A stretch of DNA of 4,705 nucleotides from a virus (IMGVR_UViG_2529292834_000011), one strand, 5' to 3'. Shown: positions 421 through 4,705, counted from the stretch's first letter. Notes: generated by a model not told the origin, from the letters alone. Made by a program: numbers and translations.

Positions 421-1491
421 ATGGCTAACGCCTGGCTCAGATTATGGCATGACATGCCAAATGACCCTAAGTGGCGAACAATTGCCAGGGTGTCAGGGCA
501 GTCAATTGCAACAGTGATGGCAGTGTATATCCACCTCCTGGTGAGCGCGTCACGAAATGTCACGCGAGGTCACATTGATGTCACGACAGAAGATTTGGCA
601 AGTGCGCTCGACGTGACAGAAGAGGTAATTGATTCAATTTTGCAGACGATGCAGGGGCGGGTACTTGATGGTGATTTAATCACTGGATGGGAAAAACGCC
701 AGGTGCTTAAAGAGGACAACGGCAATATTTCGCAAACCGCAAAATCTCCTGCAGAGCGCAAGAGGGCGCAGCGAGAGAGGGAAAGAAAGCGGGAACAAAA
801 TGGCGATTGTCACGGCGCGTCACGAAATGTCACGCACATGTCACGACGAGTCACGACAGATAAAGATACAGATAAAGATACAGATCAAGAAGATCAAAAC
901 ACTATGGTCCATGGCGTAAAAAACGCCACGAACCAGGCAGGGGATGTTCAGACCGTCAATCTTGGTCAGCCAGCAGGCACGACACCGGAAGCCGATTCAG
1001 CGTATGCGCTGAAAGCCGATTCGGGCGCTGTGCAGCAGGTGATGACCGCAAGGCCGGAGCAATCACACCAACTGCAGCAGCCTGAAGCCGATTCCGCCAT
1101 TCAGCGGGAAGCCGATCGGGTAGTCACGGAAAACACCGGGCAGCCTGTGAGACGAGTGGATTATCCGGATGTGTTCGAACAGGTCTGGCGGGAATACCCG
1201 TTGCGTGCTGGGGCAAACCCGAAGAAATCCGCTTTCAGTGCCTGGAAGGCCAGATTACGCGAGGGGGTGTCACCAGAGGCCATGCTGGATGGCGTGAGGC
1301 GTTACGCAAGATACCTTGCGGCTACCGGGAAAACGGGAACGGAATTTGTTCAGCGAGCGACGACGTTTTTTGGACCGGACCGGAATTTTGAAAACCCCTG
1401 GCTGCTCCCGGTAAGCGGCACGAACAACCAGCGTTGTGTGAATCATATTTCTGAACCGGATACCGAAATTCCACCGGGCTTCAGGGGGTAA
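421..1491 (+). CDS. phage replisome organizer / replication initiator (O-like), with embedded iterons
   Basis: ATG at 421 has a Shine-Dalgarno AAGAGGTG at 410-417 with a 5-nt spacer; the ORF track starts at GTG 415, which is too close to the SD. The N-terminus (ANAWLRLWHDMPNDPKWRTIA...) resembles the phage replisome-organizer N-terminal DNA-binding domain. A low-complexity acidic/polar linker (DKDTDKDTDQEDQ, Q/P/A-rich) is followed by a distinct C-terminal domain (FEQVWREYP...WKARL...YARYL...). Its own coding sequence contains iteron clusters, as in lambda O. Confidence 0.7.
   Translation: MANAWLRLWHDMPNDPKWRTIARVSGQSIATVMAVYIHLLVSASRNVTRGHIDVTTEDLASALDVTEEVIDSILQTMQGRVLDGDLITGWEKRQVLKEDNGNISQTAKSPAERKRAQRERERKREQNGDCHGASRNVTHMSRRVTTDKDTDKDTDQEDQNTMVHGVKNATNQAGDVQTVNLGQPAGTTPEADSAYALKADSGAVQQVMTARPEQSHQLQQPEADSAIQREADRVVTENTGQPVRRVDYPDVFEQVWREYPLRAGANPKKSAFSAWKARLREGVSPEAMLDGVRRYARYLAATGKTGTEFVQRATTFFGPDRNFENPWLLPVSGTNNQRCVNHISEPDTEIPPGFRG
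545..590. repeat. iteron cluster A: four GTCAC(G/A) hexamers at 10-11 bp phasing
   Basis: Hexamers at 549-554, 559-564, 569-574 (GTCACA) and 580-585. The 21-bp block 545-565 is identical to 815-835, and both clusters end in GTCACGACAGA. Confidence 0.65.
805..860. repeat. iteron cluster B: five GTCACG hexamers at 10-11 bp phasing
   Basis: Hexamers at 809-814, 819-824, 829-834, 840-845 and 850-855. Spacing matches one helical turn, and the cluster is followed immediately by an AT/purine-rich tract. Confidence 0.65.
857..900. repeat. AT-rich, purine-biased tract with 12-bp tandem repeat (CAGATAAAGATA x2 plus a degenerate third copy)
   Basis: Positions 857-868 and 869-880 are identical, followed by cagatcaagaagatcaaaac. 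It sits directly 3' of iteron cluster B and encodes the DKDTDKDTDQEDQ linker of the initiator. Confidence 0.6.
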
Positions 1492-2632: not shown

Positions 2633-2887
2633 ATGGAAATAACTAAAGAACGATTATTGGAAATAGCAAATCTTAGTGAAAGGGCATTAAGTGATGGGAG
2701 GATTATTTCTCCTGATGCTTATGAATCAGTTACAAGTATAGAAATAATAACGATGGCCAGGATGCTTCTTGGTTGCCTCAAAAAAGAATATAAAAAAAAG
2801 GTGGATAGCAATGCTAATATATATGATATTTTGGACAGTTGGGGGGCTTGGGCTGCAGCTGGAAATAGTTCTATCAACTGGCAGTAA
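2633..2887 (+). CDS. hypothetical protein; possibly the N-terminal part of a gene interrupted by an in-frame TAA
   Basis: ATG at 2633 with SD GGAG at 2623-2626 and a 6-nt spacer. AT-rich codon usage. The frame ends at TAA 2885-2887 and continues in the same frame into the next ORF. Confidence 0.45.
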   Translation: MEITKERLLEIANLSERALSDGRIISPDAYESVTSIEIITMARMLLGCLKKEYKKKVDSNANIYDILDSWGAWAAAGNSSINWQ

Positions 2888-3157
2888 GTGGCTGATAAAT
2901 ATAAAGATGTAGTACCTCATGGTAAGAAATTACGCCGTCAGTGTGGCAACGATGAAGGTCGTATGATTGATACCTGCATGTTGAAGCTTAAACAATATAG
3001 AATAGATGACTATGAGTTAATTATCGCTCATTTTGTTATAGGTATATCTTTGCGTACAATAGCACGAAGGTACAAATGTTCAGATGGAACAATAAGAAAG
3101 AATATACAACTTACAATGGGAGTATTGTTAGGATTGTCTTTTTATGTGCAATTATAG
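2888..3157 (+). CDS. helix-turn-helix protein with a sigma-70 region-4-like motif; may be the C-terminal part of the preceding ORF
   Basis: GTG at 2888 immediately follows TAA in the same frame, with no convincing SD. The motif YELIIAHFVIGISLRTIARRYKCSDGTIRKNI matches the sigma-70 region-4 / LuxR-type HTH pattern, followed by a hydrophobic tail. Confidence 0.45.
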   Translation: MADKYKDVVPHGKKLRRQCGNDEGRMIDTCMLKLKQYRIDDYELIIAHFVIGISLRTIARRYKCSDGTIRKNIQLTMGVLLGLSFYVQL

Positions 3158-4432: not shown

Positions 4433-4455
4433 GGTGATGCTGCCAACTTACTGAT
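4433..4455 (+). repeat. IS1 left terminal inverted repeat (IRL)
   Basis: GGTGATGCTGCCAACTTACTGAT, the characteristic 23-bp IS1 terminal repeat. Confidence 0.9.
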
Positions 4456-4487
4456 TTAGTGTATGATGGTGTTTTTGAGGTGCTCCA

Positions 4488-4705
4488 GTGGCTTCTGTTT
4501 CTATCAGCTGTCCCTCCTGTTCAGCTACTGACGGGGTGGTGCGTAACGGCAAAAGCACTGCCGGACATCAGCGCTATCTCTGCTCTCACTGCCGTAAAAC
4601 ATGGCAACTGCAGTTCACTTACACCGCTTCTCAACCCGGTACGCACCAGAAAATCATTGATATGGCCATGAATGGCGTTGGATGCCGGGCAACTGCCCGC
4701 ATTAT
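4488..4705 (+). CDS. insA: IS1 InsA transposition regulator, 5' partial
   Basis: GTG at 4488 begins (M)[71 protein letters not shown], the InsA zinc-finger N-terminus. The frame runs off the window. The ORF-track entry 4459..4671 is a different, spurious frame. Confidence 0.9.

Follow-up and report, generated by a model that had tools for sequence, protein, structure and literature searches.

Helically phased hexamer arrays inside a prophage initiator gene as a probable lambda-style replication origin

The replication initiator gene of a lambdoid E. coli prophage contains nine direct copies of the hexamer GTCAC(G/A) in two clusters, which raises the question of whether these repeats act as DNA, as the binding sites of an origin would, or only follow from the peptides that they encode. 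From the comparisons presented here, we consider it probable (about 0.8) that the arrays, together with the AT-rich tract beside them, form a prophage replication origin inside the gene of its own initiator, in the style of lambda and SPP1. A sequence-only reading of the locus had proposed this ori-lambda logic, and the proposal fits the computational tests: selection at the DNA level, a joint change of the word in both clusters, and the identity of the initiator by PHROG match, fold and gene neighbors. The computation establishes the anatomy of the arrays, DNA-level selection, covariation, the uniqueness of the clusters, the low stability of the tract and the replication-module context.

Anatomy of the arrays and of the initiator

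The window, by which we mean the whole 4,705-nt stretch that was analyzed (IMGVR_UViG_2529292834_000011), is a segment of a lambdoid E. coli prophage integrated beside potC. It matches the ATCC 43896 chromosome at 99.9% identity, and its initiator gene is 99.6% identical to that of the deposited phage genome Tritos. The prophage in the window shows marks of decay (a nonsense mutation in Q, a frameshifted gene and an IS1 insertion), and the origin may therefore be idle here. The features are listed below in window coordinates.

26–349: 3′ part of a YdaT/CII-like gene, upstream of the initiator gene
421–1491, plus strand: replication initiator gene (356 aa), preceded by cro and the YdaT/CII-like gene
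421–705 (aa 1–95): winged-helix N-terminal domain
aa 107–130: basic helix
aa 130–165: disordered linker (pLDDT <50)
After the linker ending at aa 165: C-terminal domain
549–585, plus strand: cluster 1, four GTCAC(G/A) direct repeats, with starts at 549, 559, 569 and 580 (spacing 10, 10, 11), encoding aa 43–55, which form the end of helix 1 of the winged helix and the loop that precedes helix 2
545–565 and 815–835, plus strand: exact 21-bp block holding two iterons and their spacers
612–617, minus strand: inverted hexamer (CGTGAC on the plus strand), 32 bp past the last direct copy of cluster 1
809–855, plus strand: cluster 2, five GTCACG direct repeats, with starts at 809, 819, 829, 840 and 850 (spacing 10, 10, 11, 10), encoding part of the disordered linker
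856–900, plus strand: purine-rich AT tract, a predicted DNA-unwinding element (71% AT and 73% purine; the gene as a whole has 54% GC)
856–890, plus strand: 12-bp tandem repeat, 2.9 copies (Tandem Repeats Finder)
883 and 892: GATC sites in the AT tract
905–935: inverted repeat (hairpin), ΔG −8.7, z −2.9, 1 of 200 shuffles as good
1420–1488, plus strand: C-terminal tail (..RCVNHISEPDTEIPPGFRG) that copies the extreme C-terminus of host DnaT
1532–1954: DUF977 gene, directly after the initiator gene
Beyond DUF977, in order: a frameshifted DUF4406 gene, DUF4752, the Q antiterminator, two minus-strand genes and IS1

The sequence-only reading had placed nine hexamers in two clusters at 10- to 11-bp spacing, and every position was reproduced, as was the exact identity of 545–565 with 815–835, which stops at the ends of the block. 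The 12-bp tandem repeat is likewise present, with the span of 857–880 given for it slightly short of the 856–890 returned by Tandem Repeats Finder. The inverted copy at 612–617 was absent from the earlier list. The two clusters lie ~260 bp apart, and the iteron has a 6-bp core with weakly conserved flanks in a position matrix; no palindromic iterons were found in the window. The count of GTCACR in the window is 11, where 3.1 ± 1.8 would be expected; none of 200 shuffles reached it. One extra isolated copy, at 1123, is absent from a 99%-identical relative (L005) and was treated as outside the feature.

When the codons of the gene were shuffled synonymously with the protein held fixed, the shuffled genes held 2.7 hexamers on average and never more than 9, compared with the 10 observed, and since none of 20,000 shuffles attained 10, the hexamers are not forced by the protein sequence. 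They fall in all three reading frames (G-TCA-CG, GTC-ACG and GGT-CAC-A), so that a single DNA word encodes Ser-Arg, Val-Thr or Gly-His. The peptides encoded by the repeats are SRNVT (twice), DVTT/RVTT and DKDTDKDT; the translation of ORF 421–1491 bears out the earlier observation of SRNVT, RVTT and the acidic DKDTDKDT. Cluster 1 thus encodes the end of helix 1 and a loop, and cluster 2 with the AT tract encodes the disordered linker.

The 356-aa protein matches phrog_3729, 'replication initiation protein', from end to end (E 1.5e-255). Scans of the initiator against Pfam and NCBIfam gave no family above threshold: PF09681 (Phage_rep_org_N) scored 16.1 bits against a cut-off of 23.3, in a colinear alignment of aa 5–123 with profile positions 1–119 of 121, and TIGR01714 scored 16.2 against a cut-off of 49.8. 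None of the 65 family members passed for Phage_rep_org_N at E ≤ 0.01. The initiator is probably a remote relative of Phage_rep_org_N that lies below the curated threshold. An AlphaFold2 model built from 65 homologues, confident for about residues 11–95, runs through three helices, a loop (aa 46–55), two helices and a β hairpin that completes the winged helix, after which come the basic helix (aa 110–130 in the model) and the disordered segment. The modeled N-domain is closest in rmsd to the N-terminal domain of DnaD, whose winged helix serves mainly for oligomerisation; a Foldseek search against the PDB gave only E > 0.1, and solved structures searched with a profile of the N-domain alignment yielded no match. 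In the model, the helix that occupies the place of a canonical recognition helix (aa 67–77, EEVIDSILQTM) is acidic and hydrophobic. The loop at aa 43–56 adjoins the wing of the winged helix. At the other end of the protein, the tail peptide SEPDTEIPPGFRG matches DnaT in PDB entries 6aep_A, 2ru8_A and 9zbt_D (in the last at residues 158–179), and also matches NF002770 at positions 156–179. The tail is a candidate handle for host replication proteins; no role for the DnaT C-terminal tail was found in the 2026 preprimosome paper. The N-domain occurs in at least 951 protein clusters, with hosts that include E. coli (O157 among them), Shigella, Enterobacter, Pseudomonas, Aeromonas, Bordetella and others. 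NCBI gives relatives of the window protein the label 'phage replisome organizer'.

Conservation and covariation of the word

The homologues of the N-terminal domain compared here come from complete phages, viral contigs and 39 bacterial genomes that span many genera. Among 64 non-redundant genes, 37 repeat GTCACG, 12 CGAACGC and 8 GTAACG; a clear repeated word is absent from 5–7. In 25 non-redundant genes of the GTCACG class, which have 58–69% DNA identity to the window, normalised codon entropy was 0.11 within the hexamers versus 0.83 outside them (Mann-Whitney p = 2e-8), a contrast to be read with the caveat that the class was itself chosen by the presence of the hexamer. Several hexamer codons are invariant across the 25 genes (GTC for Val, GGT for Gly50, ACG for Thr48, CAC for His and TCA for Ser141), and Thr55 and Thr145 are mostly ACG; at conserved residues outside the hexamers nearly every synonymous codon is in use, and synonymous sites beyond the hexamers are close to saturated across genera. 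The sequence-only reading would have been contradicted by homologues that keep the protein and lose the hexamers through synonymous changes. The opposite was found, with hexamer codons frozen across genera and, among the homologues compared, none that retains the peptide and breaks the word.

The arrangement of the copies is conserved with their sequence. The cluster-1 positions within the gene (nt 129, 139, 149 and 160) and their frames recur in 37 of the 64 non-redundant homologues. Neighboring copies in the 37 GTCACG-class genes lie 10 bp apart 155 times and 11 bp apart 50 times, that is, 10 or 11 bp in 205 of 223 pairs. In Pseudomonas phage phita81A and Aeromonas phage pAEv1818, which have ~65% DNA identity to the window over the N-domain and C-terminal domains unrelated to that of the window, GTCAC stands at nt 129, 139, 149 and 160 and at about 388–418 of the gene, in the frames seen in the window. 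The inverted copy recurs at gene nt 193–194 in about 20 of 27 GTCAC-class loci. At shorter distance, 82 close relatives (51 alleles) keep the nine-hexamer layout unchanged, and all six SNPs inside the clusters fall in spacers, leaving the 54 hexamer bases untouched.

Cluster 2 has three or four iterons in most homologues and five in the window and its closest relatives, where an insertion of 21 bp (7 codons) at aa 134–140 accounts for the extra copies. These residues are present in only 3 of 27 homologues, and the exact 21-bp block has its second copy at this insertion. A locus from E. albertii (L006) has likewise gained 21 bp, in cluster 1. These cases suggest that iterons are gained as in-frame pairs: one 10-bp and one 11-bp step make 21 bp and keep the frame, which explains both the alternation of 10- and 11-bp spacing and the exact duplicate. 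From the last copy of cluster 1 to the first of cluster 2, homologues have gaps of 229, 227, 247, 278 and 319 bp, so that helical phase is not kept between the clusters. The earlier reading had called two separated clusters less usual than a single array; on these comparisons, the two-cluster layout is conserved across the initiator family and is not peculiar to the window.

Between classes the word switches jointly in both clusters, with similar copy number and phasing in all three; GTAACG(C) and CGAACGC occupy the same two places as GTCACG, at 10- to 11-bp spacing and in three frames. One 5-mer occurs at least three times in the cluster-1 zone and in the cluster-2 zone of 56 of the 64 non-redundant genes, compared with 4 of 64 and 1 of 52 for control zones. 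In the GTAACG class the Val-Thr pair of cluster 1 is encoded by GTA-AC(G/A/C/T), not by GTC-ACG, and so matches the cluster-2 word of the same genes; at an Enterobacter locus of this class (L030), the inverted site reads GTTAC at the same position. Judged from these alignments, the GTC-to-GTA switch in Val-Thr is a synonymous change that tracks the DNA word and not the protein. Because the word changes jointly in both clusters, the same sequence-specific factor most likely binds both.

The purine-rich AT tract lies directly after cluster 2, as the sequence-only reading had it, and its 40-mer at 859–899 is the least stable of the early operon (nt 1–2520), at −44.7 versus a mean of −57.4 kcal/mol by nearest-neighbor calculation (z 3.75 within the gene). 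In nearly all homologues with a word class, cluster 2 is immediately followed by a (C)CAGATAAAGA-type tract. At most loci it is 67–83% AT and 73–97% purine, including genes of 60–68% GC such as those from Castellaniella, Pseudothauera and Chromobacterium, and its codons in homologues are GAT for Asp and AAA for Lys almost throughout. The 12-bp unit is present in 1, 2 or 3 copies among close alleles. Beyond the tract, a GC-rich inverted repeat is found at the place of the 905–935 hairpin in many homologues, a recurrence that catches the eye but is weak statistically, with a mean z of only −1.0 (33 genes); the hairpin may be part of the origin, an assignment that we regard as uncertain.

The factor reading the arrays and competing explanations

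Within ±2.5 kb of 39 diverse loci, the N-domain is the sole shared gene (39 of 39), an association that is partly trivial because the arrays lie inside the N-domain gene. A comparison of three complete genomes, Tritos (E. coli), phita81A (P. aeruginosa) and pAEv1818 (Aeromonas), found three or more GTCAC within 45 nt only at the two cluster places in each genome. The proteins common to these phages are lambda-like tail proteins, a distant integrase (23–38% identity) and the initiator N-domain (62–70%); no regulator or terminase was common to them at BLASTP E ≤ 1e-4. DnaA-box-like matches numbered 13 versus 10.9 expected, with none adjoining the arrays, and IHF consensus matches were not enriched around the arrays. 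We infer, by elimination and from the analogy with known origins, that the factor binding the arrays would be the initiator N-domain.

Since that link is drawn by elimination only, the arrays might bind another factor, such as a CII/YdaT-like regulator, a terminase at a pac-like site or a conserved host protein. Lambda CII-type activators offer a parallel, as they bind direct repeats 10 bp apart within coding DNA, and so does the P1 pac site, which has two hexamer clusters. Homologues of the neighboring genes are scarce at the 39 loci (YdaT-like at 4, DUF977 at 2 and the window-type C-domain at 4, against 39 for the N-domain), the three phages with identical words share neither a regulator nor a terminase at BLASTP E ≤ 1e-4, and neither DnaA boxes nor IHF consensus sites are in excess near the arrays. 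A conserved host factor is further disfavored by words that differ among related enterobacterial hosts (GTAACG at the Enterobacter locus L030, GTCACG in E. coli). We regard binding by any such factor as very unlikely; sites for a neighboring regulator or a host factor were rejected for want of a regulator common to the three phages and on account of the different words in related hosts. Less probable again is that the arrays are minus-strand transcription signals, with GTGACA resembling a −35 hexamer and driving an antisense RNA across the initiator gene. One weak minus-strand match at 833–806, itself iteron sequence, agrees at 9 of 12 positions, but the two matches found compare with 0.9 ± 1.0 expected, other hexamer copies have no accompanying −10 element, CGAACGC and GTAACG are unlike −35 hexamers, and an Rfam scan returned no match. 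With matches near expectation and other word classes unlike the −35 element, a promoter array was rejected. Hardly credible at all is the view that the repeats do nothing as DNA and simply result from a repetitive peptide or from neutral slippage in a disordered linker. Such a source would suit cluster 2 and the DKDT tract, which encode a disordered segment (pLDDT <50 over aa 130–165), as well as the variable copy number of the 12-bp unit among alleles, and the gene does contain another repeat, PEADSA/GAAGCCGAT, in four copies that are purely in-frame. The hexamers, however, lie in three frames and so encode different peptides, their synonymous sites are frozen across genera in a gene otherwise near saturation, the SNPs among 51 alleles miss all 54 hexamer bases, and the Val-Thr codons, GTC-ACG or GTA-ACG, follow the word of the other cluster. 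Repeats driven by the peptide were rejected as contradicted by the synonymous-site data.

More serious, though still on the unlikely side, is the proposal that cluster 2 and the AT tract are the origin proper and that cluster 1 is a separate control element for the same initiator, which could act by titration or handcuffing for copy control, by gene repression or as a fork barrier. The low-stability tract follows cluster 2 only, the inverted copy belongs to cluster 1 alone, and the distance between the clusters is out of helical phase among homologues (229, 227, 247, 278 and 319 bp). Several plasmids have a second iteron cluster for control, and the second iteron sets of the P1 and F plasmids, together with SPP1 oriR, are precedents. 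In SPP1, G38P has a distant second site, oriR, that is proposed to stall forks (PMC6316719). Against a division of labor, both clusters are kept in each of the three word classes, and their copy number and phasing stay similar. The computation does not separate a positive from a negative role for cluster 1, and the proposal is a refinement of the origin reading, not an exclusive rival to it.

Route of initiation and comparison with known origins

On the reading that both arrays and the tract form the origin, initiator binding, melting at the tract and the route of helicase loading are steps that we infer. Prophage induction would start rightward early transcription through cro, the YdaT/CII-like gene and the initiator gene, yielding the 356-aa initiator, whose winged-helix N-domain would bind the GTCACG sites, four plus one inverted in cluster 1 and five in cluster 2. 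Because the direct repeats come once per helical turn, the bound proteins would align on one face of the DNA. The resulting nucleoprotein complex, possibly bridging the clusters ~260 bp apart, would act with negative supercoiling to open the tract at 856–900; this segment is a rather likely site of melting, with somewhat less confidence than for the origin itself. The variable C-terminal domain would recruit the replicative helicase. A helicase or loader gene was found neither in the window nor in the complete Tritos genome, and because the phage has none of its own, it would draw on host DnaB(-DnaC), perhaps by way of the DnaT-like tail of the initiator. The downstream neighbors of homologues include a primase-helicase, a lambda-P-like protein, a DnaB helicase or a DnaC/IstB-like loader, which is the usual layout of a phage replication module; the P-like neighbor is present only in some homologues (e.g., L007).

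We also entertain, as quite unlikely, the idea that cluster 1 is a self-referential module, whose nucleotides would be at once sites for the initiator and the code for the loop (aa 43–56) that reads the word. A change of the iteron word would then rewrite reader and site in one step, and this would account for the joint switch of the loop peptide and both clusters among GTCACG, GTAACG and CGAACGC. A related possibility, of the same unlikely kind, is that one small protein with a tail copied from DnaT loads the host helicase and needs no loader from the phage. Outside the iteron-encoded loop, the alignment was gappy and uninformative as to class-discriminating residues.

In full-text literature, no paper was found that describes the initiator family or its origin; the Eru replication-type paper on Stx phages makes no mention of origins or iterons, and searches for GTCACG with iteron and for phage Tritos gave nothing on the initiator family. 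The design of the origin is familiar from lambda, and the widespread initiator family has apparently not been described before. The finding leaves the current understanding of how phage origins function unchanged. If the reading is correct, it shows where, in a large and uncharacterised family of prophage replication modules, the origin and the determinants of specificity lie, and it provides three natural specificity classes for studies of initiator/origin co-evolution. It would also define a compact single-gene replicon, an initiator with an internal origin, testable as a vector, and give a basis for predicting cross-activation and incompatibility of co-resident prophages.

The closest comparison is ori-lambda, in which four iterons and a 39- to 40-bp AT-rich region lie in gene O and are opened by O on supercoiled DNA (PMC6022878, PMC5043065). 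Both origins lie within the initiator gene of a rightward early operon, after cro and a cII-like gene, and in both an AT-rich, purine-skewed tract of roughly 40 bp lies to one side of the repeat array, a likeness that for the window holds at the level of sequence. The division into an N-domain for origin specificity and a C-domain for partner specificity, exchanged as modules, is also shared (PMC5043065, PMC6022878). The likeness to lambda drawn in the sequence-only reading is therefore sound as to an origin within its initiator gene but does not extend to the sites, which are not 18- to 19-bp palindromes, or to the protein, which is not a homologue of lambda O. Lambda has a single cluster of four 18- to 19-bp inverted repeats bound by O dimers, whereas the window has direct repeats with a 6-bp core every 10–11 bp, in two clusters with one inverted copy; the initiator has no Pfam match to the lambda O family, and the gene that follows in the window phage is DUF977 instead of a P-like loader.

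SPP1 oriL, with G38P-bound repeats and a DUE inside gene 38, suffices for theta replication in vitro (PMC5737612, PMC6316719). [quoted passage not shown] Unlike those of the window, which are 260 bp apart, the SPP1 sites are about 13 kb apart, and SPP1 has its own loader and helicase (G39P and G40P), neither of which occurs in the window phage; hhalign of the family profile against G38P gave a probability of 0.1%. In iteron plasmids, helix-phased direct repeats are thought to bind initiator monomers and to open an AT-rich neighbor (PMC5043065). The theta plasmids P1, F, RK2, pSC101 and R6K share with the window helix-phased direct repeats beside an AT-rich region, but their iterons are about 17–22 bp, some two helical turns apart and outside the rep gene, their Rep proteins contain two Rep_3-type winged-helix domains, to which the initiator has no match, and the DnaA boxes usual there are not in excess in the window. 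Given no homology to O, G38P or Rep_3, the initiator would work like those of these origins from outside their protein families. Short words of 6–8 bp in two separated sets, read by the element's own initiator, occur at P4 ori/crr and at SaPI/PICI origins, and the window is like them in this respect. The initiators there are a helicase or primase-helicase, with sites outside or beside the gene, in contrast to the small winged-helix initiator of the window, which has both sets inside its coding sequence.

Repeats and flanking elements within the initiator gene

The replication initiator gene carries a second repeat in addition to the iterons, the GTCAC(G/A) hexamers proposed as origin sites, and further elements lie in and just beyond the predicted unwinding tract that follows the second iteron cluster.

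883-886 and 892-895: GATC (Dam) sites within the predicted unwinding tract
905-935: inverted repeat (hairpin) directly 3′ of the AT tract; DNA dG -8.7, z -2.9
985-1116: second repeat of the initiator gene, GAAGCCGAT/AAAGCCGAT, with copies at 988, 1012, 1084 and 1108

The second repeat encodes the peptide PEADSA/KAD/EAD. Counted from the gene start, all four of its copies share one reading frame, whereas the iterons of the same gene fall in all three frames, and for this reason the GAAGCCGAT/AAAGCCGAT repeat appears to be a duplication at the peptide level within the initiator linker. At the place equivalent to that of the hairpin, many initiator homologues carry an inverted repeat rich in GC (CCCCCC...GGGGG, which encodes PPxPPxG), and across 33 genes the hairpin after the AT tract has a mean z of -1.0, which is weak statistical support. 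The two Dam sites within the tract are 2 of the 7 in the window.

Homologues without a clear repeated word

A minority of the homologues of the initiator N-domain (L032, L035, L040, L141, L039 and L042) have no clear repeated word in the cluster 1 zone. These homologues carry either the loop peptide S(I/L)(A/S)EERG or an inserted domain, and several of them keep a (GATAAA)n tract with AACGCAAGTGAAC just before it. Their origins may be degenerate or consist of a single cluster.

A DnaT-like tail on the initiator

1420-1488: DnaT-like tail of the initiator (aa 334-356), assigned by its match to the DnaT C-terminus

In its final 23 residues (..RCVNHISEPDTEIPPGFRG) the initiator is a close match to the very C-terminal end of DnaT, a primosomal protein of the host, as represented in PDB entries 6aep_A, 2ru8_A and 9zbt_D (residues 158-179), and the same tail also terminates initiator homologues whose middle domains differ. 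A role for this tail of DnaT was sought in the DnaT preprimosome paper and was not found there. In the complete 46-kb genome of Tritos (L284), a deposited phage with a near-identical initiator gene, the initiator is the sole annotated replication gene, and no helicase, loader or primase gene is present. Judged from the sequence match, the initiator tail looks like mimicry of a short host motif in a phage that lacks its own helicase loader.

Decay of the prophage

The prophage of the window is decaying. Relative to the near-identical prophage of E. coli strain ATCC 43896, the Q antiterminator gene (2633-3157) has a CAA to TAA nonsense change at 2885 that divides it into two ORFs. The DUF4406 gene (1951-2246) is frameshifted into two ORFs (1951-2124 and 2115-2246), and the annotation of ATCC 43896 likewise lists it as a pseudogene with a frameshift. 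The DUF6731 gene encodes 262 aa in the window, compared with 915 bp (about 304 codons) in ATCC 43896. Similarity to the ATCC 43896 prophage ends at 4435, and the sequence at ~4436-4705, highly multicopy across E. coli genomes, reads like the beginning of IS1 (insA).
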